Assembly: GCA_943787225.1 (NCBI GenBank)
Contig: CALSLP010000003.1
Span: 140,797 to 204,796 of the forward strand
Reading direction: 5' to 3'
DNA from: an uncultured Alphaproteobacteria bacterium
Lineage (GTDB): Bacteria > Pseudomonadota > Alphaproteobacteria > MPNO01 > UBA2964
DNA: 64,000 bases
Below the pieces are notes generated by a model. That model searched no databases, had not been told where the DNA came from, and saw nothing but the letters and a program-made list of their open reading frames with translations. A program made the translations under genes and the position numbers. Positions 19,456-28,872 of this stretch are shown here, piece after piece (the stretch's first letter is position 1; every line of letters begins with the position of its first letter).

Positions 19456-20694
19456 TTACGCGCGTTTCTCGTAATGGCTATCGACATACGTCTCGACGAT
19501 CTGCTGGAATTCTTCCGCAATACCAGGCCCCCGCAAAGTCATCGCCTTTTCACCATCGATAAAGACCGGTGCCGCGGGTTCTTCACCAGTTCCCGGTAGG
19601 CTGATCCCGATATTGGCATGCTTGCTTTCACCGGGCCCGTTCACGATGCAGCCCATGACGGCTACCGCCATATCTTCGACCCCGTCATAATTCTCACGCC
19701 ATGCCGGCATCTGTACGCGGATGTAGGTCTGGATCTTGCTGGCGAGTTCCTGAAACACCGTGCTGGTGGTCCGACCACAGCCAGGACAGGCCGTCACTAA
19801 CGGAACAAACGAGCGCAGCCCCATCACCTGAAGCATTTCCTGCGCCACGATCACTTCATTGCGTGCGATCACCACCGGGTTCCGGCGTCAGCGAAACTCG
19901 AATGGTATCGCCAATCCCCTGCTGCAACAAAACGCCCATGCCGGCGGTCGAGGCAACAATGCCTTTGGAGCCCATCCCCGCTTCGGTAAGGCCAAGATGC
20001 AGGGCATAGTTACAACGCTGCGCCAGCTCGCCATAGACACCGATCAAATCCTGAACTTCTGAGACCTTACAGGAGATAATAATTTTCTCCGGCCCCATGC
20101 CTAATTCATGCGCGCGCTCCGCCGAGAGCAACGCCGACTGGATCATCGCTTCGCGGGTAATCTCGGTTGCCTCGCGCGGCTTTCAGCCTTGGCGTTTTCA
20201 TCCATCAAATGGGTGAGGAGTTCCTGATCGAGACTGCCCCAGTTCACACCAATTCGAACCGGACGATCATATTTCAACGCTACCTCAATCATCGTTGAGA
20301 ATTGCAGATCGCGTTTTTCACGAAAACCGACATTGCCGGGATTAATGCGATATTTTGCCAGCGCCTCGGCACAGTCCGGATACTTGGTCAGAAGTTGGTG
20401 GCCAATATAGTGAAAATCGCCAACCAGCGGGACATCAATGCCCTGCTTGTCGAGCGCTTCCCGAATATGCGGAACGGCAGCAGCGGCCTCTTCGCGATCA
20501 ACCGTTATCCGGACAATTTCCGACCCGGCTTTGGCAAGCTGCGCCACCTGCTCCGTCGTCGATGCGACATCGGCTGTATCGGTATTGGTCATCGACTGGA
20601 CAACCACTGGCGCACCACCGCCAATGATCACATTTCCGACTTTTACCGGCACGCTATCGCGACGCTGAATACCGTTTACCCTTTTGGTCATCAC
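19456..20694 (-). pseudogene. ispG: 4-hydroxy-3-methylbut-2-enyl diphosphate synthase (IspG/GcpE) split into three ORFs by two frameshifts (near 19875 and 20150)
   Basis: The three collinear ORFs 20143..20694, 19856..20146 and 19456..19875 together reconstitute a full IspG ([30 protein letters not shown]). It is essential in MEP-pathway bacteria, so the shifts are probably sequence errors. Confidence 0.8.
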
Positions 20695-20797: not shown

Positions 20798-21733
20798 TCA
20801 CTCCGCCGCCGCGTGCGCCTTATCCTGAGCGTCCCTATCGACGAGATCAGCCGCCACGGTCGTCTCCGCGAGCATGCCCCAGCTTCGGATCCATTCATAG
20901 GAACGCGCAAGCTCCGCTTCCGGGATGGGACCTGGTTTCTGAACAATTAACCGGCTCGGGCGCAAATCATCGACCGTCAAAGCGGCACCAATCTCAGGAT
21001 CACGATCTTTATAATAATCGATGAAATAATGCATGTAGCTGTGCTTGGCGGCATTGATCCGCCGCACAGCCTCCGTGACCGCACGATTAAACGCGGCATA
21101 GGTTTCAACATCAACCTTATCGGACACGACCTCGGTGCCATGAAACGATGCTGCGGCAAGCACCCGGCAGCCCTGTTTCTCGGCCAGCGAGATATAGGGT
21201 TCGGTCAGGCAAGCACCGTCATAATCGCCCCGCAACAGCGCGTCATACTGACGACGCGACCCGTTTGGTGTCTTACAGGTCTTGATCTGGTCACGCGGCA
21301 AAAATCCTTCGAGCATCAACAGCGTCAGAAAATGAGTGCCAAAATAATAAGGTAACCCGACAACCTTGCCGGCCATTTGTTGTGGCGTATAGGCGCTAGA
21401 ATCCGGCGGCACCACCAACGCACCGAAGGCAACAATAGCGCGACGGCCCACCTGGCGGCCGCCCATATCGGAATCCTGAACGCGACAGTAATTGCCCCAC
21501 TCGCAGGCGTTATACATATCCGCCTTGCCCTGCTCGAACAGCTTGCCATGGCTGGCAAACGGATCGATTCCGACGGGGCTGTTCACATCTTTCTGAGTAT
21601 CAGGCTTGGGGCCGGCATCGCGATCAGCCCAGGCAACTTCTATCCCCTCTGCTTCGAACAACCCTTCATCATAGGCGACAAGTTCCGGCAGCCCTTGAAA
21701 AGGGGCTGTCGTTTCAAGGGTAAGCTTCTTCAT
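20798..21733 (-). CDS. NMT1/THI5-like (SsuA/TauA periplasmic-binding-protein fold) protein without signal peptide, paralog A
   Basis: 311 aa with no N-terminal hydrophobic segment. N-terminal G-[LF]-[FL]-E-A-E-G-I-E-V block and a GKADMYNACEWGNYCRVQD block characteristic of the fold. RBS GGGAAGAG. Confidence 0.6.
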   Translation of the reverse strand: MKKLTLETTAPFQGLPELVAYDEGLFEAEGIEVAWADRDAGPKPDTQKDVNSPVGIDPFASHGKLFEQGKADMYNACEWGNYCRVQDSDMGGRQVGRRAIVAFGALVVPPDSSAYTPQQMAGKVVGLPYYFGTHFLTLLMLEGFLPRDQIKTCKTPNGSRRQYDALLRGDYDGACLTEPYISLAEKQGCRVLAAASFHGTEVVSDKVDVETYAAFNRAVTEAVRRINAAKHSYMHYFIDYYKDRDPEIGAALTVDDLRPSRLIVQKPGPIPEAELARSYEWIRSWGMLAETTVAADLVDRDAQDKAHAAAE

Positions 21734-21762
21734 CTTGCTCTTCCCATTACTCGAGCCTGAAG

Positions 21763-22695
21763 CTATTCAGCCGCCGCGTGCGCGCCCTGCTGAACTTCCA
21801 TATTAATCAACTCAGCCGCTTCATCCGTTTCCGCCAGCATGCCCCAGCTTTTGATCCAGGCAGCGGTCCGGTCAGCTTCCTCTTGCGGAATAGGCGCCGG
21901 ATCAACAACCACAACACGGGATTCCATCAAATCACTGACATCCATTGCGGCGATCCGAGGGTCCTTGTCTTTGTAGTAGTCCAGGAAGTAATGCATGTAA
22001 GCAGAACGATCCGCGTTGATGCGTCTTACCGCTTCCTTTACCGCCCGGTTGAACTTCGTATAGGTTTCGGTATCGACCTTGTCGGAGGCCACTTCAGTGC
22101 CATGCAGGAATGACGACGTAACCAGACGGCAGCCTTCCTTCTCGGCCAACGAGGCATAGGGCTCTGTCAGACAGGTCGCTTCATATTCTCCCGCCATCAA
22201 GGATTCAAAACGGAAACGCGAACCGTTCGGGGCCTTCACCAGTTTGATCTGCTCACGCTTCATAAAGCCTTCAAGCATATGCAGAATGAGATAATGGGTG
22301 CCAAAAAAGAACGGTGCGCCGATATCCTTATCAACCAGCTGCTGTGCCGTATAAACTTCTGAGTCCGGACGGACATACAACCCGGCAAAGCACACGATGG
22401 CCCGGCGGCCAAGCTGACGACCACCTTGCCCGGTATCCTGAACGCGACAATAGTTACCCCATTCGCAGGCGTTATACATATCGGCTTTACCCTCTTCGAA
22501 GAGCTTGCCATGACTGGCAAATGGATTGACGCCTTCCGGGCTCGTCACGTCCTTCTGGACTGTTTTATCGACGCCCTTTTCGCGATCCGCCCATTCGATT
22601 GTTATTCCTTCTTTTTCGAAAAGACCTTCACGATCCGCTACGAGCTCTGCCAGCCCCTGAAACGGCGCTGTTGTTTCTAAAACCAACTTCTTCAT
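21763..22695 (-). CDS. NMT1/THI5-like cytoplasmic protein, paralog B
   Basis: Roughly 65-70% identical by eye to paralogs A and C. AGGGAGG RBS before the MKKLVLETTAPF start. The ORF track extends 12 codons further upstream. Confidence 0.6.
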   Translation of the reverse strand: MKKLVLETTAPFQGLAELVADREGLFEKEGITIEWADREKGVDKTVQKDVTSPEGVNPFASHGKLFEEGKADMYNACEWGNYCRVQDTGQGGRQLGRRAIVCFAGLYVRPDSEVYTAQQLVDKDIGAPFFFGTHYLILHMLEGFMKREQIKLVKAPNGSRFRFESLMAGEYEATCLTEPYASLAEKEGCRLVTSSFLHGTEVASDKVDTETYTKFNRAVKEAVRRINADRSAYMHYFLDYYKDKDPRIAAMDVSDLMESRVVVVDPAPIPQEEADRTAAWIKSWGMLAETDEAAELINMEVQQGAHAAAE

Positions 22696-22766
22696 AACAA
22701 CCTCCCTGTAAAGGCGAATGGGTGGAGACATGCGCCCCCACCCATAATTCGAAGTAGCGTCAACTA

Positions 22767-23702
22767 TTATTCAGCCGCGGCGTGGGCGCCTTCTTGAACT
22801 TCCATATTGACCAAATCCGTATGATCGTCGGTCTCGGTCAACATGCCCCAGCTCTTGATCCAGTCGGCTGTGCGGGCCAGTTCATCGGCAGGAATCGGCG
22901 CCGGGTCGACAACCACGATGCGGCTGGCCTGCAGATCAGCAATTGTCAGCTCACCAATGTCGGGGTCTTTGTCCTTATGACAATCGATGAAGTATTGGAG
23001 ATACTTGGCCTTGTCGGCATTGATCCGAATAACGGCCTCTTTAACTGCACGGTTGAACTTGGCATAGGTCTCGGTGTCGACCTTGTCCGATGCCACTTCC
23101 GTGCCGTGATAGAATGCCGTCGCAACAACCCGGCAACCATTCTTCTCGGCCAGAGACAAATAAGGCTCAGTGAGCGTTGTCGCCTCCAGCTGACCTGACA
23201 TCATGGCGTCATAGCGCATACGGGAGCCGTTCGGCGCACTGCAGACATTGATCTGATCGCGCGGCAGGAAACCTTCCAGCATATGCAAAGCGAGATAATG
23301 CGTTCCAAAATAGAACGGTACACCAACCAGTTTGCCGGCCAGCTGCTGTGGTGTGTAAACGTCCGACTCTGCGCGGACGACGAGACCGGCAAAAGTCACA
23401 ATGGCACGGCGACCAATCTGACGACCGGATTGTACACTGGTGTCCTGTACGCGGCAGTAGTTACCCCATTCACAGGCGTTATACATATCCGCCTTACCCT
23501 GTTCGAACAGCTTGCCATGGCTCGAATGGGGATCCAGCTCATCAGGGCGGGTGATATCGGTACGAACCTCTTTCTTGACGCCCGCGTCGCGATCCACCCA
23601 TTCGATATGAATGCCTTCCTTTTCAAACAGGCCTTCTTTATCGGCAACGAGCTCTGCAAGTCCCTGGAAAGGCGCTGTATTTTCAAGTCTTAGTGTGATC
23701 AT
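22767..23702 (-). CDS. NMT1/THI5-like cytoplasmic protein, paralog C
   Basis: Same conserved blocks as A and B. AGGGGA RBS. First gene of the three-gene array. Confidence 0.6.
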   Translation of the reverse strand: MITLRLENTAPFQGLAELVADKEGLFEKEGIHIEWVDRDAGVKKEVRTDITRPDELDPHSSHGKLFEQGKADMYNACEWGNYCRVQDTSVQSGRQIGRRAIVTFAGLVVRAESDVYTPQQLAGKLVGVPFYFGTHYLALHMLEGFLPRDQINVCSAPNGSRMRYDAMMSGQLEATTLTEPYLSLAEKNGCRVVATAFYHGTEVASDKVDTETYAKFNRAVKEAVIRINADKAKYLQYFIDCHKDKDPDIGELTIADLQASRIVVVDPAPIPADELARTADWIKSWGMLTETDDHTDLVNMEVQEGAHAAAE

Positions 23703-23783
23703 GGTTAAGTCCCCTGTATTAGATCAAAATACTCAGAATTCTACGAATTATTGAATGATGTTAGAGCTATTCTGGCGAACTCA

Positions 23784-23804
23784 ATAGATAATAGCGAATT
23801 CTAT
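23784..23804. promoter_or_regulatory. LysR-type T-N11-A dyad (ATAGA-N11-TCTAT) in the divergent intergenic region
   Basis: Perfect 5-bp inverted half-sites separated by 11 nt, read directly from the sequence between the NMT1-like array and the LysR gene. Confidence 0.35.
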
Positions 23805-23842
23805 TATGTTCTAATTCCATACCCAAATGTTATACTTCAACC

Positions 23843-24742
23843 ATGCGGATGAACCTGAGACAGATCGAAGCTTTCCGCGCCGCGATGGAGTTTGGCTCCG
23901 CCACGGCAGCGAGCGAAGTCCTGCATGTCACGCAACCCGCCGTTAGCCGCCTGCTGGCCGACCTCGAAACCAATGTCGGATTCCAGCTATTTGAGCGCCG
24001 GGCGCGTGGACTTGTTCCAACGCAGGATGCCCACGCGCTCTACGAGGAAGTAAAACGCTCGTTCATCGGTCTGGACCGGATTGGCCAGGTTGCAACCGGT
24101 ATTCGCGAAAAAGCGACCGGCACCGTGCGTGTAATTGCCTTGTCCAAATATGCCGATGGTTTTGTCGCCAGTATCATCGGTCAATTTCTTAAAGATAATC
24201 CCGGCATTATGGTTGAGCTCGAAAGCTCGGGCACCGCTGGCGTGGTCGAAGGCATCGCCTCTCAGACTTACGATGTCGGCATTGCTTCAGCGACGGTATC
24301 CGATGCTTTGATCAAGGCGGAACCGCTCTTTGAAACCAGCGTCTTGGTGGCCATGGGAGCAGACGATCCATTAGCAACTCAAAAGGTTATCAATTTGCGA
24401 GAGCTTAACGGGCGACGCATGGTCGTTCTTCCCGAAGATAGCGAATATGGGTCGGTAATTTGGAAGGCGCTCCGCAAACAGAAGGTCGAGCCCATCGTGG
24501 TCGGCGAAGCGCGCACCCACGCGTCACTTTGCAAAATGGTCGAAGCCGGTGCGGGTATTACCCTCGTGGACCGCACAACCGCCACAGACTTTCCCAATGG
24601 GAATATTGTCTTTCGCCCGACCGCCCCGCCAATAACGCGCGTCGTCGCCACGCTGGTCAATACACGGGTGGCGCAATCAATCGCCACCAATTCATTTCTC
24701 AACGCCTTACGCAACAACGTCCACGACGCGGTAGACAGCTAG
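23843..24742 (+). CDS. LysR family transcriptional regulator
   Basis: N-terminal HTH (LRQIEAFRAAMEFGSATAASEVLHVTQPAVSRLLADLE) plus a substrate-binding domain. Divergent from the NMT1-like array. Confidence 0.85.
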   Translation: MRMNLRQIEAFRAAMEFGSATAASEVLHVTQPAVSRLLADLETNVGFQLFERRARGLVPTQDAHALYEEVKRSFIGLDRIGQVATGIREKATGTVRVIALSKYADGFVASIIGQFLKDNPGIMVELESSGTAGVVEGIASQTYDVGIASATVSDALIKAEPLFETSVLVAMGADDPLATQKVINLRELNGRRMVVLPEDSEYGSVIWKALRKQKVEPIVVGEARTHASLCKMVEAGAGITLVDRTTATDFPNGNIVFRPTAPPITRVVATLVNTRVAQSIATNSFLNALRNNVHDAVDS

Positions 24743-24743
24743 C

Positions 24744-26108
24744 CTAATCCGCCAGGAAATACCCGCTCGTCACAGCATCATGCCATAGCTGAGCAACAGA
24801 CGGTGCTATACCGCTAGGTAGCTCATCTTCCGACCACCAATAGGAATGTACTCCGGCCTGAAAATGGACCAGAGCAGTCTTAGGTGCTGGGTCCATCTCC
24901 GCAAACATCGGCATGACCAGCGATTTATAACTTTCCGCACCGTGGTCGCGGCTATCCTTTGAAACACAAAACAACACGGGCGGCACCGGCTTCACGTCCG
25001 GACCTTCCAATTCACGCCCATAGCTCAGGAACTGTTTGACCAGAGCTTCGGTTTCATCTGTGTCGAGCCCCATCCGCTCGGCGCAAACGCGGGCACCTTC
25101 TTCCAGTGATTCTTCGATATGGGTACTTACCGTGTATTCGCACTTGAATTGAGGTTCCATTTTCGCCCCCTCCCAAGCCGCCATAACTTCCTCCATCAGC
25201 GATGGCAAACGCATCAACGCGACGGGCCCATCCTGACCAAGTTTCTCCGGACCGATGTAGCGCGCTTTGTCCCGCCAGGTCCGGATATAAAGCTCAAAGA
25301 ACGGATCAGTACGTTTGGTTTCGGTGACGACTTTCTCAAAATCACCAATTGCGCCGAGAGAGCCCTGTTTAGCCAGCTTGGCTTTATTGATATAGCCAAA
25401 GGCGGAATTCTCCACCGCCATAACACCGGCGACGTTTGGCACTCGCTGCGAAAGCATAAAGACGAATGGTCCGCCAGTTGAGTGGCCATGTACATAGATA
25501 GAATACTCGTCTTCGGGCATGTTCCGCGCCATCGCCTCAATTCCGCCGCGTTCAAATGCTGCTGGCCAACCCGCCATGCGGTACCAGAATGTACTCCCAG
25601 GCTTGGCATGCAAGACGGTGCGCGTGCCATAACGTTCACTAAGCGACGTGTCGGTGATGACCTCATACTGGTCGGGCATAATATGTTCGCCGGTCAACCA
25701 TTGCGGTGTGCGGATTGTCCCATCTGCATTGATCGTATCTCTCGGCCAGTGCCGTGACGCATCATCGAGATAGAGCCGCCCAGGATAGGTCATGGTTGTG
25801 ACTTTAAATCCAAACTTACCGCACAGCAGCTTGGCGACCGGCGCCATGGTTTTAAAATCACCATCACCGCCGGATAGCAGATAGACGCCGATTTTTTTAC
25901 CATCAGCGCCGATTGCTATCTTTGATGGGTCGGACGGTTCATAGATCTGCGCGCCGATATCCCATTCCATTCCGACGGCTTCAATGCGGAACAGATCCTC
26001 ATGTTCGGTGAAAGGAATGTCAGGCCGCGCCGCAATGTTGTCTGACTCCGCGACACATTGCGCGCGTTCTATTTCCTCGGGCGGTGTCCAGTTCTTGCTG
26101 TCTGCCAT
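24744..26108 (-). CDS. alpha/beta-hydrolase-like protein of unknown family (454 aa)
   Basis: Nucleophile-elbow GHSTGG (VHGHSTGGPFVF). No further family recognised. Confidence 0.5.
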   Translation of the reverse strand: MADSKNWTPPEEIERAQCVAESDNIAARPDIPFTEHEDLFRIEAVGMEWDIGAQIYEPSDPSKIAIGADGKKIGVYLLSGGDGDFKTMAPVAKLLCGKFGFKVTTMTYPGRLYLDDASRHWPRDTINADGTIRTPQWLTGEHIMPDQYEVITDTSLSERYGTRTVLHAKPGSTFWYRMAGWPAAFERGGIEAMARNMPEDEYSIYVHGHSTGGPFVFMLSQRVPNVAGVMAVENSAFGYINKAKLAKQGSLGAIGDFEKVVTETKRTDPFFELYIRTWRDKARYIGPEKLGQDGPVALMRLPSLMEEVMAAWEGAKMEPQFKCEYTVSTHIEESLEEGARVCAERMGLDTDETEALVKQFLSYGRELEGPDVKPVPPVLFCVSKDSRDHGAESYKSLVMPMFAEMDPAPKTALVHFQAGVHSYWWSEDELPSGIAPSVAQLWHDAVTSGYFLAD

Positions 26109-26148: not shown

Positions 26149-27063
26149 TTATAGTCCGATTTGCGCCAGCAGCGCTTTGGTACACGGCTCGTCCGGATAA
26201 ATCAGGTCCGGCATTGAGGCGAAATGATGCTTGCCAGCGAATTCCATAGTCTGACACGGCCAGCCGCGGGACTGCCAGGCAATCCGATAGAGATCAGATT
26301 GGCGTTTAAACTCATCCGTTTCATTCTCGCCCCACGCGATGATGATCGGGCACGGAATTTTCGGCAGGTGATGCACCGGGCTGTTACGATAGGCCGCTTC
26401 CTTGTCGAGGTTGGCCCATTCATTAACGTTGGAAAGCCGCACCGGCTCCAGGTCGAACAAACCGGACAGCGCACAGGCGCTTTTGATTAGATCGTCCGGT
26501 AAACCGAAATCCTCACGCCAGCCATCAGCCAGCATCATCCCGGTAAGATGGCCTCCTGCTGAGCGGCCAACCACATGGACGTTATTAGGATCGCCATTAA
26601 AGCTCGCGGCATTTTTATAAGCCCAGGCCAACCCGGCGCGGCACTGACGCACGATTTCATCAATCGTCGCCTCCGGCGCCAGAAGATAATTCACGGAGAC
26701 ATAGGCGCAGCCGGCAGGCACCAGCGCCTCGGCATACAAATCGACATCTTTCTGACTTGATGATCGCCAGTATCCGCCATGAATAAAATAGACAATCGGT
26801 GAGCCGGGCTTCTCCGCGGGAAAGACATTCACCACTTCCGCCGCAGTCGGACCGTAGGGTACATCTATCCGGCATTCCATCTCATCACGCACCCGCGCGC
26901 TGTTTTCAGAAATGAAGTTGCGATACTTGTCGCCATCAGGAGCGGTACCGCGCGCGCTATACTGAACGTTTAGTTCAGCCTGCGTGTAATCACGGTACAC
27001 GCATTTCGATTTGAAAAACTTGTTGTTCTCACTTGTCGACACAGCGGAGCCTCCCTCACACAA
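26149..27063 (-). CDS. alpha/beta hydrolase fold-3 esterase/arylformamidase-like
   Basis: HGGYW oxyanion motif and GRSAGGHL nucleophile elbow. Confidence 0.7.
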   Translation of the reverse strand: MCEGGSAVSTSENNKFFKSKCVYRDYTQAELNVQYSARGTAPDGDKYRNFISENSARVRDEMECRIDVPYGPTAAEVVNVFPAEKPGSPIVYFIHGGYWRSSSQKDVDLYAEALVPAGCAYVSVNYLLAPEATIDEIVRQCRAGLAWAYKNAASFNGDPNNVHVVGRSAGGHLTGMMLADGWREDFGLPDDLIKSACALSGLFDLEPVRLSNVNEWANLDKEAAYRNSPVHHLPKIPCPIIIAWGENETDEFKRQSDLYRIAWQSRGWPCQTMEFAGKHHFASMPDLIYPDEPCTKALLAQIGL

Positions 27064-27114: not shown

Positions 27115-28290
27115 CCCCCCTAAAACTGGGCCATTATTTTGGCATGGAAAGGGGATTTGTGATGGCTCGGAAACGACATTCGGACGAGGACATACTGAAG
27201 CTGCTGCGTGAGATTGAAGTGAAGTTGTCGAACGGCAGCGACGTAGCGTCGGCGTGTCGTGGCGTGGGTATCAGCGACGCTACGTATTATAACTGGCGCA
27301 AGCGGTTTGGCGGGATGGGTCGGTCGCAGTTGTCGGAGATGCGTTCTCTCGAGAAGGAGAATACGCGGTTGAAGAAGATTGTGGCTGAGCTCGAACTGGA
27401 CAAGCTGATCCTCAAGGAAAGCCTGAGCTACCTAAAGCCCAGGGCCTGACGACCGAGCATCTTCGTCAGGCCGTTATCCATACACGCCAGAAGCTTGCTA
27501 CGTCGGAGCGACGGACCTGCCGGGTTATTGGTCTGGCCCGCAGTTCCCTGCAATATCGACCAGATCCCAAAGATGACAATGCTCTGCGGTTGGCACTGAT
27601 CCGGCTGGCGAAGCAGTATGGGCGCTACGGTTATCGCAAGATTGCCGTCCTGCTGCGTATCGAAGGGTGGAAGGTGAACCACAAGAAGGTTGAGCGGATC
27701 TGGCGCGAAGAAGGACTTCAGCTGCCGCAACGAGACAAGAAGCGCCGGCGGCTCTATCACAAGGACAGCTCGATCATTCGGTTGCGGCCAACCCATCCCA
27801 ATCACGTCTGGGCCATCGACTTCGTGCACGACAAGCTCGACAACGGTCGGAGCTACAAGATGCTGACTGTCCTGGACGAGTACACCCGCCAGGTGCTGGC
27901 TGTGACGGTTCGCACCCGGATGAGGGCTGACGATGTGCTTGAGGCGCTATACCCACTCCTGCTGCGCCACGGCACCCCGGAATACATCCGCTCGGACAAT
28001 GGTCCCGAGTTCATCGCACAGGCGATGCAGGACTGGCTGGCAAGGGTCGGCATCAAACCCATCCGGATCTATCCCGGATCACCCTGGGAGAACGGATACA
28101 ACGAACGCTTCAACGGAACCCTGCGCCGCGAGGTTCTCAATGCCGAGTGGTTCACCACGACTAAGCAGGCTCAGATCGTCATCAACCAGTGGCTCAGACA
28201 GTACAACCACATCCGTCCACATCAGGCACTGAACATGCGACCGCCAATACCAGAAACTCTAATCAGGAATGGCACAGAACTTGGGGGCTA
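27115..28290 (+). mobile_element. IS3-family insertion sequence (about 1.15 kb), copy 1
   Basis: OrfA (HTH) and orfB (DDE integrase core) lie in a -1 frame relationship. Imperfect terminal inverted repeats (CTGgGCCATT / AATGGCaCAG) with TG..CA ends near 27128 and 28277. The boundaries are approximate. Confidence 0.75.
27162..27449 (+). CDS. IS3 family transposase OrfA (HTH)
   Basis: MARKRHSDEDILKLL...ATYYNWRKRF... leucine-zipper tail. Confidence 0.8.
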   Translation: MARKRHSDEDILKLLREIEVKLSNGSDVASACRGVGISDATYYNWRKRFGGMGRSQLSEMRSLEKENTRLKKIVAELELDKLILKESLSYLKPRA

Positions 28291-28291
28291 G
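27590..28291 (+). CDS. IS3 family transposase OrfB (integrase catalytic core, DDE)
   Basis: rve-domain blocks (NHVWAIDFVHDKL...LTVLDEYTRQVL...HGTPEYIRSDNGPEF). The frame is open upstream to about 27422, overlapping orfA in the -1 frame, consistent with an OrfAB fusion by ribosomal frameshift. Confidence 0.8.
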   Translation: MALIRLAKQYGRYGYRKIAVLLRIEGWKVNHKKVERIWREEGLQLPQRDKKRRRLYHKDSSIIRLRPTHPNHVWAIDFVHDKLDNGRSYKMLTVLDEYTRQVLAVTVRTRMRADDVLEALYPLLLRHGTPEYIRSDNGPEFIAQAMQDWLARVGIKPIRIYPGSPWENGYNERFNGTLRREVLNAEWFTTTKQAQIVINQWLRQYNHIRPHQALNMRPPIPETLIRNGTELGG

Positions 28292-28795: not shown

Positions 28796-28872
28796 TGGTA
28801 GCGGGAGAGGGACTTGAACCCCCGACACGCGGATTATGATTCCGCTGCTCTAACCAGCTGAGCTACCCCGCC
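28796..28872 (-). tRNA. tRNA-Met (anticodon CAT), 77 nt; a lysidine-modified tRNA-Ile cannot be excluded
   Basis: Reverse complement reads GGCGGGGTAGCTCAGCTGGTTAGAGCAGCGGAATCATAATCCGCGTGTCGGGGGTTCAAGTCCCTCTCCCGCTACCA. It has a cloverleaf with a CAT anticodon and an encoded CCA end. Confidence 0.85.

Follow-up and report, generated by a model that had tools for sequence, protein, structure and literature searches.

What is the function of three tandem proteins that share the fold of transport binding proteins and carry neither a signal peptide nor a transporter partner? The genes, from a marine alphaproteobacterium, lie on the minus strand of a 64-kb window, by which we mean the whole stretch of DNA analysed. 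We use T as shorthand for the leaderless SsuA/NMT1-fold protein that they encode and for its homologues. The promoter-proximal copy 1 (22767..23702, 311 aa) is followed by copy 2 (21763..22695, 310 aa) and copy 3 (20798..21733, 311 aa), and all three end in AHAAAE, so that the co-directional paralogs, their lengths and their C-termini are as the preliminary description of this DNA had reported. The length of copy 2 is counted from MKKL. Its open reading frame reaches 22731, but the start at 22695 is favoured by the conserved N-terminus MKKLVLETTAPF and by an AGGGAGG Shine-Dalgarno sequence 6 nt upstream. A purine-rich motif of this type precedes each of the three starts, in line with the ribosome-binding sites noted earlier.

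The three copies are not an assembly artefact of one gene, because they are too diverged, with identities of ~65-70% (70% between copies 1 and 2; 65% to the first-aligned copy), and because the triplet recurs in 10 species-level MAGs and in 4 more metagenome contigs. Across the triplet-bearing genomes copy 2 forms a clade of its own, as does copy 3, the most diverged paralog; copy 1 groups with single-copy marine versions and with a phage clade. Purifying selection is strong on each of the three copies, with dN/dS values of 0.014-0.036 overall, 0.027-0.035 for copy 2 and 0.014-0.032 for copy 3, in which every family motif is intact. The triplet consists of old, diverged and individually maintained paralogs. 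This selection excludes dosage amplification in the manner of THI5, and the precedent that had been seen in the THI5 copies does not apply here. Nor is it at all probable that T is a THI5-like single-turnover HMP-P synthase, present in several copies since each molecule is consumed. The copies are diverged paralogs instead of dosage repeats. In THI5, Lys62 binds PLP and His66 is the substrate residue. In an alignment anchored on GK[VA]DM to what we take to be the THI5 sequence, these positions are occupied by Ala76 and Gly80 of T, and the Lys/His dyad appears to be absent. Moreover, the THI5 profile alignment spans only residues 13-43 of T, and no thi genes occur among the T neighbours. Rfam searches of the window and of 7 related loci returned tRNAs and neither a TPP nor any other riboswitch, and we rejected a link to thiamin or to another cofactor riboswitch on this ground.

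A second answer is the one given by the source annotations. NCBI and JGI label T as 'NitT/TauT substrate-binding protein' or 'nitrate ABC transporter substrate-binding protein', and SsuA is its nearest fold, which would suit an ordinary periplasmic binding protein whose transporter partners are encoded elsewhere. We regard this as extremely improbable. In the AlphaFold (AF2) model, residue 2 of T already opens beta-strand 1, which is made by the N-terminus MKKLVLETTAPF. A hydrophobic N-terminal run is missing in 97 of 98 family members, in which neither a signal peptide nor a lipobox was found, and the lone exception is a mis-called long ORF; in the window, the ORFs of copies 1 and 3 offer no earlier in-frame start. 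As for partners, all frames of the whole window are free of LSGGQ-type ABC signatures, no ABC gene lies within 10 kb on either side of the identical locus L002, and a same-strand adjacent ABC ATPase is found in none of the 154 core-family loci (74 from genomes and 80 from metagenomes). The sole pairing of T with an ABC ATPase is on a viral contig, L023, and involves the ATPase only; close relatives of its T protein are missing from the JGI metagenome collection (best identity 64%), and recurrence of the pairing was rejected. Two distant T relatives are found in transporter operons. In phage genomes the gene stands alone. Finally, the window proteins score 17-27 bits against TIGR01728 (SsuA_fam) and TIGR01729, far below the respective cutoffs of 163.5 and 304. 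T proteins are not transporter components, as had been proposed from the missing leader and the missing ABC partners.

What remains of the likeness to transport proteins is the fold. The AlphaFold model shows the two alpha/beta lobes of the SsuA-topology class II solute-binding fold and, together with profile searches, indicates that T is a remote branch of the SsuA/TauA/NrtA-NMT1 fold and does not belong to an unrelated family. Membership of the NMT1/THI5/SsuA fold, proposed earlier, is thus borne out at the level of predicted structure; the profile scores fall under every curated family cutoff. For Pfam NMT1 (PF09084) and NMT1_2 (PF13379), the window proteins reach 17.3-21.3 bits against cutoffs of 20.5 and 24.7, and it takes more distant relatives to reach an NMT1-type Pfam cutoff, as 13 of 24 do (best 5e-13, with PF09084 also as a precomputed match). 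Searched against PDB sequences, a single T protein had no significant match, and only the family profile reaches SsuA and TauA. Compared with these proteins, which bind aliphatic sulfonates and taurine, T lacks the leader, permease and ATPase, contains an extra insertion of ~20 residues (~residues 38-60) and has its own Cys-Glu-Trp-Gly motif, which together with Arg84 is invariant in the wider family. The invariant Cys77 (motif N-A-C-E-W-G) is predicted to sit at a strand-to-helix turn. The anion cradle of TauA is partly retained, and TauA Glu106 is not conserved. DszB, the 2'-hydroxybiphenyl-2-sulfinate desulfinase, carries its catalytic set in the cleft, Cys27 with His60 and Arg70. T is 14-15% identical to DszB, and Cys77 and Cys27 occupy different sequence positions. 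The operon partners of DszB are dszA, an LLM gene, and dszC, which is acyl-CoA-dehydrogenase-like; no neighbours of these types occur at the 74 core T loci, and LLM and ACAD genes were found only near distant relatives in L114 and L117. The idea of a cytoplasmic enzyme or binding protein fits leaderless, partnerless proteins with this fold, but the fold itself is nearer to transport binding proteins than to THI5, DszB or MqnD.

The triplet faces a divergent LysR-type regulator gene (23843..24742, plus strand), as the preliminary description had it, with HTH_1 (3.5e-19) and LysR_substrate (2.2e-34) domains; its best NCBIfam match, PRK11013, stays at 187.6 bits, below the cutoff of 288. Between the two lies the palindrome ATAATAG-CGAATT-CTATTAT (7-6-7; 23788..23807), a candidate LysR operator. 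Its midpoint is ~96 nt from the T start and ~45 nt from the LysR start, upstream of both. Across 13 aligned orthologous intergenic regions, its left arm is kept in 12 and its right arm in ~10. The perfect ATAGA-N11-TCTAT dyad described earlier does exist (23784-23804) and overlaps this palindrome, but it is perfect only in the present genome, and the conserved element is ATAATAG-N6-CTATTAT. LysR is the divergent partner of T in 14 of the 74 loci, with intergenic lengths of 93-140 nt except for 212 nt in L077 and one mis-called locus. Judged by its sequence features, with both LysR domains, a divergent gene and a conserved intergenic dyad, this appears to be a LysR-regulated divergent operon, and the triplet is probably co-transcribed from a promoter under LysR control through the palindrome. 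A scan for promoter and terminator signals was uninformative, as it gave fewer matches than shuffled controls and none above them.

Downstream of LysR, and convergent with it, the two alpha/beta-hydrolase genes noted earlier form a separate minus-strand pair. The first (24744..26108) encodes a divergent 454-aa protein without Pfam, NCBIfam or PDB-sequence matches. It is an alpha/beta-hydrolase only by its predicted fold (AF2 pLDDT 82.7; all top Foldseek matches are alpha/beta-hydrolases, E ~4e-7) and its GHSTGG elbow. The second (26149..27063) encodes an esterase of the Abhydrolase_3/hormone-sensitive-lipase type, supported by Pfam BD-FAE and Abhydrolase_3, with PDB matches to 9n8r (6e-30), 2pbl and kynurenine formamidase 4e11 (3e-9). 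Found no more than 5 kb from T at 20 of the 74 loci, this esterase is the T neighbour most widely common to marine lineages.

LysR, the triplet and the two hydrolases could be read as a single inducible pathway for catabolism or salvage, with the hydrolysis of an ester or amide supplying the substrate of T. The order of 454-aa hydrolase, LysR and two or three copies of T is kept in 12 loci, preceded by the esterase or by two SDR genes. The esterase, which has an HGGYW motif and matches kynurenine formamidase over its full length, lies next to T on the same strand, 70-139 nt away in most loci, also in single-copy lineages without LysR. However, the arrangement is seen only in a single marine Rhodospirillaceae-like group, whose loci also share ispG, EamA and MsrB synteny, and is explained by shared ancestry. 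In half of the triplet loci the esterase gives way to two SDR genes, the hydrolase genes converge on LysR, and in phages T manages on its own. We therefore consider such a pathway rather unlikely: the proposed module finds only partial support, its conservation being limited to a single lineage. The link between T and the 454-aa hydrolase is confined to that lineage, and this protein was rejected as a general T partner, its distant homologs lying elsewhere. A 458-aa gene downstream of T in phages was likewise rejected as its homologue (BLASTP E > 1); it corresponds to phrog_1462, annotated without a function.

Outside the triplet lineage T is single-copy and at least 67% identical, and hundreds of further bacteria carry it, in gene neighbourhoods without relation to one another. 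The family comprises ~4,200 clusters at 90% identity, with 439 matches among GTDB species representatives. With neighbourhood ORFs chosen by a GC3-GC2 criterion, including those of high-GC loci, the neighbours of single-copy T genes are esterases, Rieske dioxygenases, GMC oxidoreductases, CoA ligases or TctC receptors; frequent operon-like coupling is with oxygenases and TctC, not with ABC systems. T also stands alone between the capsid and tail genes of pelagimyophage-like phages, ~79% identical to the window protein. On the 108-kb contig L007 the order is gp23, T, gp3-like, uvsY and uvsW, and the phage gp23 is 75% identical to that of Pelagibacter phage Mosig. Further carriers are L024-L030 and 14 IMG/VR contigs, and a single phage T variant was seen in 215 sample blocks. 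With hallmark genes on both sides, a long viral contig and a close cellular homolog, T has the marks of a host-derived auxiliary gene. Its carriers are uncultured phages, as a tblastn search of INPHARED gave no match in cultured ones. T is absent from PADLOC (defence systems) and from PHROGs, and we found the family undescribed in the literature searched on NMT1-type phage auxiliary genes, solute-binding-fold enzymes and K02051 in viruses, and in a pelagimyophage survey (PMC7029224). Because the same highly conserved protein occurs in unrelated contexts and in phages, T probably acts on its own, as an enzyme or as a binder of a ligand.

As a binder, T would be a non-catalytic cytoplasmic protein. 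It might be a free-standing counterpart of the NrtC/CmpC domain that senses an intracellular anion and modulates a NitT/TauT-type ABC ATPase or another partner, or else a metabolite buffer or chaperone; phages might use it to override host uptake control. We take this as the main, if somewhat unlikely, alternative. Fusion or coupling to a NitT/TauT ABC ATPase was found neither in the window nor in the 154 loci, and the pairing in L023 is a singleton. The regulatory domain at the C-terminus of NrtC/CmpC differs from T, which is a separate protein with an ATPase hardly ever beside it, and their sequence relation is just an N-terminal match of 20-30 residues (E 0.1-1). In addition, an invariant Cys-Glu at the predicted cleft strand-to-helix turn would be unusual for a pure binder, and the frequent coupling to oxygenases and TctC, instead of ABC systems, also speaks against this reading.

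Our best explanation, held tentatively and at slightly less than an even chance, is that T is a cytoplasmic cysteine-dependent enzyme acting on an anionic small molecule; here we infer that T is catalytic, what kind of substrate it takes and what part Cys77 plays. Each protein would close its two lobes around the substrate. The candidates are sulfonates, sulfinates and aromatic or heteroaromatic carboxylates, and the retained anion cradle of main-chain amides would hold the molecule. Cys77 would act on it, helped by Arg84, His135 and Glu179, and the three paralogs may differ in substrate detail or build a hetero-oligomer. Against an enzyme, the fold is closest to non-catalytic binding proteins, it would be strange for a catabolic enzyme with a specific substrate to be so highly conserved across such different contexts, and no benefit to phages is apparent. 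The ATPase pairing in L023 and the two distant relatives in transporter operons fit a regulatory binder equally well. A bolder version, which we think improbable, is that T represents a new class of cofactor-independent cysteine-dependent enzymes on a sulfonate-binding scaffold, plugged into many operons and serving phages as an auxiliary metabolic gene. Such an enzyme, for instance a desulfinase, a desulfonase or a decarboxylase whose substrate is an abundant anionic metabolite, would offer generally useful chemistry to soil and marine Alphaproteobacteria in many catabolic operons, and abundant pelagimyophage-like phages would use it to reprogramme the organosulfur or aromatic-acid metabolism of their hosts during infection.

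To our knowledge, solute-binding folds turned cytoplasmic enzymes (THI5, DszB, MqnA/MqnD) are rare, and they are mechanistically instructive. Everywhere T is annotated as part of a transporter, and wrongly so; knowledge of its ligand would put thousands of annotations right and could uncover a reaction new to organosulfur or aromatic-acid turnover. Since T is also carried by widespread marine T4-like phages, relatives of SAR11 and OM43 phages, it would extend the metabolism shared by ocean viruses and their hosts by one uncharacterised auxiliary gene.

The three genes for T, a family of leaderless proteins with the SsuA/NMT1 fold, are consecutive on the minus strand of the window (copy 1, promoter-proximal, 22767-23702, 311 aa; copy 2, 21763-22695, 310 aa; copy 3, 20798-21733, 311 aa). 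These ORF calls bear out the preliminary description of co-directional paralogs that all end in AHAAAE. The copies are about 65-70% identical to each other (copies 1 and 2, 70%). An alternative start of copy 2 is possible at 22731; we favour 22695 as the probable one, since it gives the N-terminus that is conserved in the family (MKKLVLETTAPF) and has AGGGAGG 6 nt upstream. SD-like motifs also precede the starts of copies 1 and 3. The same triplet was found again in 10 species-level MAGs and 4 more metagenome contigs, which rules out an assembly artefact as the source of the three copies. Of note, ispG/gcpE (19456-20694, minus strand) is split into three overlapping ORFs in the window, whereas the near-identical locus L003 has the whole gene (411 aa); in the related locus L001, ispG is broken and the third T copy truncated. 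This pattern suggests indel errors of long-read assembly, a pseudogene being less likely.

Pfam NMT1 and NMT1_2 score the window proteins at 17-21 bits, below gathering, SsuA_fam gives 17-27 bits (cutoff, 163.5), and a PDB search with a single T sequence returned no significant match. The AF2 model of copy 1 (pLDDT 87) predicts an unambiguous class II binding-protein fold. Its highest fold comparison figure is with SsuA (23.9), followed by NrtA and the cytoplasmic regulatory domain of CmpC/NrtC (22.3 each), TauA (21.3) and ThiY (20.7). THI5 (17.9), DszB (17.2) and MqnD (16.5) score lower than the transport proteins, and Foldseek agrees. In shape, the model thus resembles transport proteins more than it does the fold's known enzymes. 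In addition, a family profile including relatives of ~30% identity matches SsuA (E 3.6e-8) and TauA (4e-6) in the PDB, and 13 of 24 relatives at about 30% identity pass NMT1. Altogether, the T family is a remote branch of the SsuA/NMT1 clan, and the fold originally assigned holds. In the copy 1 model, strand 1 starts at residue 2, and a hydrophobic N-terminal run is absent from 97 of 98 family members. T is leaderless, so the proposed cytoplasmic location stands as well, and an ordinary periplasmic role is nearly excluded.

In a neighbour-joining tree, the sequences from triplet-bearing species group by copy, one clade for each. Measured against four orthologous genomes, all three copies have a dN/dS within 0.014-0.036, with synonymous sites near saturation, and the family motifs are intact in all copies. 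The triplet is an old, stably kept paralog set, which implies subfunctionalisation or a heteromer. The copies have diverged and are separately conserved, so the suggested analogy with multi-copy THI5 fails and a THI5-like dosage amplification is ruled out; a THI5-like role in general is nearly excluded. T doublets occur independently in a few other lineages.

Control of the triplet by LysR, as first proposed, is supported by a divergent gene (23843-24742) encoding HTH_1 and LysR_substrate domains, and remains the probable arrangement. The ATAGA-N11-TCTAT dyad noticed in the divergent promoter (23784-23804) does exist; among 13 orthologous LysR-T intergenic regions, it is perfect in this genome only. 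The element conserved in their alignment is instead an overlapping palindrome, ATAATAG-CGAATT-CTATTAT (23788-23807). A second block (about 23825-23834; TATAACATT when read on the T-oriented strand) lies 8-17 nt ahead of the LysR start and is kept in 13/13 of these regions; it may be a translation signal or another regulator site. Beyond LysR and convergent with it lie genes for a 454-aa protein (24744-26108, minus strand) and an Abhydrolase_3 esterase (26149-27063, minus strand). The 454-aa protein has no Pfam, NCBIfam or PDB-sequence match. Its AlphaFold model (pLDDT 82.7) matches only alpha/beta-hydrolases and its family has an invariant GHSTGG elbow, so the two hydrolases were correctly recognized. 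It represents an unannotated alpha/beta-hydrolase family of its own, with many invariant residues and 1,680 homologs at 57-89% identity among the matches listed. None of its distant homologs lies near T; therefore, the link between both genes reflects lineage synteny. Directly adjoining the esterase gene is an IS3-type transposase whose two frames encode HTH_Tnp_1 and then rve (27144-28291, plus strand), followed by a tRNA gene (28799-28872, minus strand); such a transposase also occurs in L001 and the identical locus L002.

At 90% identity, the T family comprises about 4,200 clusters. In a library clustered at 50% identity it has just 715 representatives; two full-length clusters lie above about 58% identity, with nothing between these and about 35%. 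GTDB species representatives gave 439 matches, the best 80 nearly all from Alphaproteobacteria plus two Binatia. We called and clustered ORFs in 80 loci and named partner genes by Pfam and NCBIfam. The triplet with LysR and the 454-aa hydrolase occurs only in one marine Rhodospirillaceae-like lineage, which also has the common ispG, EamA and MsrB synteny. The original observation is confirmed and its interpretation partly supported; the idea of a self-contained LysR-hydrolase-T module does not hold. In 60 loci T is single-copy, with an identity to the window protein of 67% or more. Recurring contexts are esterase, then T, then ispG; a PaaK-like CoA ligase followed by T, a choline-dehydrogenase-type GMC oxidoreductase and a HAD hydrolase; T followed by a TctC receptor (gaps 6-45 nt, several loci); T followed by UbiD; and GntR divergent from T, then benzoate/anthranilate-type Rieske alpha and beta subunits (gaps 6-53 nt, several loci). 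Near the latter clusters are a class III extradiol dioxygenase, an MhpA-like hydroxylase and another gene for a leaderless protein of the binding-protein fold (330-340 aa; L103 6295-7287 and homologs), with weak Phosphonate-bd and TauA matches. This gene recurs beside the extradiol dioxygenase, and hence these clusters encode two distinct cytoplasmic proteins that share the fold. An oxygenase, decarboxylase or ligase lies within 5 kb of T in 35/74 loci. In single-copy marine lineages, the esterase-T pair is immediately preceded by a gene for a BLUF blue-light sensor or for an FMN-dependent 2-hydroxy-acid dehydrogenase (L042 8454-8870; L050 7598-8953).

Down to about 30% identity, C77, G80, R84, G133, P180, A185 and G189 are invariant and E78, W79 and E179 nearly so. 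In the copy 1 model, Cys77 is the last residue of strand 73-77, and helix 80-85 follows closely; this is predicted to be a classic ligand-contact place in this fold. Gly133 aligns in the family profile with Thr132 of TauA, where backbone amides of Thr132, Gly61 and Gly79 cradle the sulfonate (PMC6906117). Several additional invariant Arg residues in the close family suggest an anionic ligand. Distant T-like genes occur within SsuABC-like operons and have genes for luciferase-like and acyl-CoA-dehydrogenase-like flavoenzymes as neighbours, which is the setting in which DszB works. Taken together, these features lead us to favour, tentatively, a putative cytoplasmic, Cys-dependent enzyme that would act on an anionic substrate. 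The main rival, somewhat less likely, is that T has no catalytic role and instead is a cytoplasmic sensor or binds NitT/TauT ATPases as a partner, much as the regulatory domain of NrtC/CmpC does; this would also explain whole-protein conservation across unrelated contexts. The window has no LSGGQ-type ABC signature in six frames. ABC ATPases are almost absent near T, with one present at 7/74 genome and 2/80 metagenome loci, in none adjoining T on the same strand. On the viral contig L023 (6001-7735; IMGVR_UViG_3300044674_002913), there is a divergent T (61% identity) for which the metagenome collection has no close relative. It overlaps a NitT/TauT-type ABC ATPase gene at the start of the latter, and no permease ORF follows.

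Beyond the reach of the preliminary description, and in our view of greater interest, is the carriage of this mis-annotated family by phages. A leaderless, motif-complete homolog (79% identical) lies on long T4-like viral contigs, 14 of them in IMG/VR, where it is flanked by gp23, which encodes the major capsid protein, and a gp3-like tail gene. This capsid protein shares 75% identity with its counterparts in Pelagibacter phage Mosig and Methylophilales phage Melnitz. No T gene was found in cultured phages (tblastn, INPHARED), and a pelagimyophage survey (PMC7029224) does not mention it. The gp23-gp3 junction of pelagimyophage-like phages is a cargo hot-spot (L007 10001-10924; L024 7373-10301; L027 4162-5712), carrying T alone, pyrB (above the TIGR00670 cutoff) with T and phrog_1462, or an HNH endonuclease with T. 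In L024, uvsY is followed by genes for a radical-SAM protein and for two 2OG-Fe(II) oxygenases. The GC content of phage T genes is phage-like (37-39%, vs 53-56% in the window), which points to their having long been resident there and strongly constrained. In the neighbour-joining tree, the phage clade has the clade of marine single-copy and copy-1 sequences as its sister, and one phage variant (P0107) is indexed in 215 sample blocks. The T family is thus large, very conserved and mis-annotated, and abundant marine phages carry it as well.
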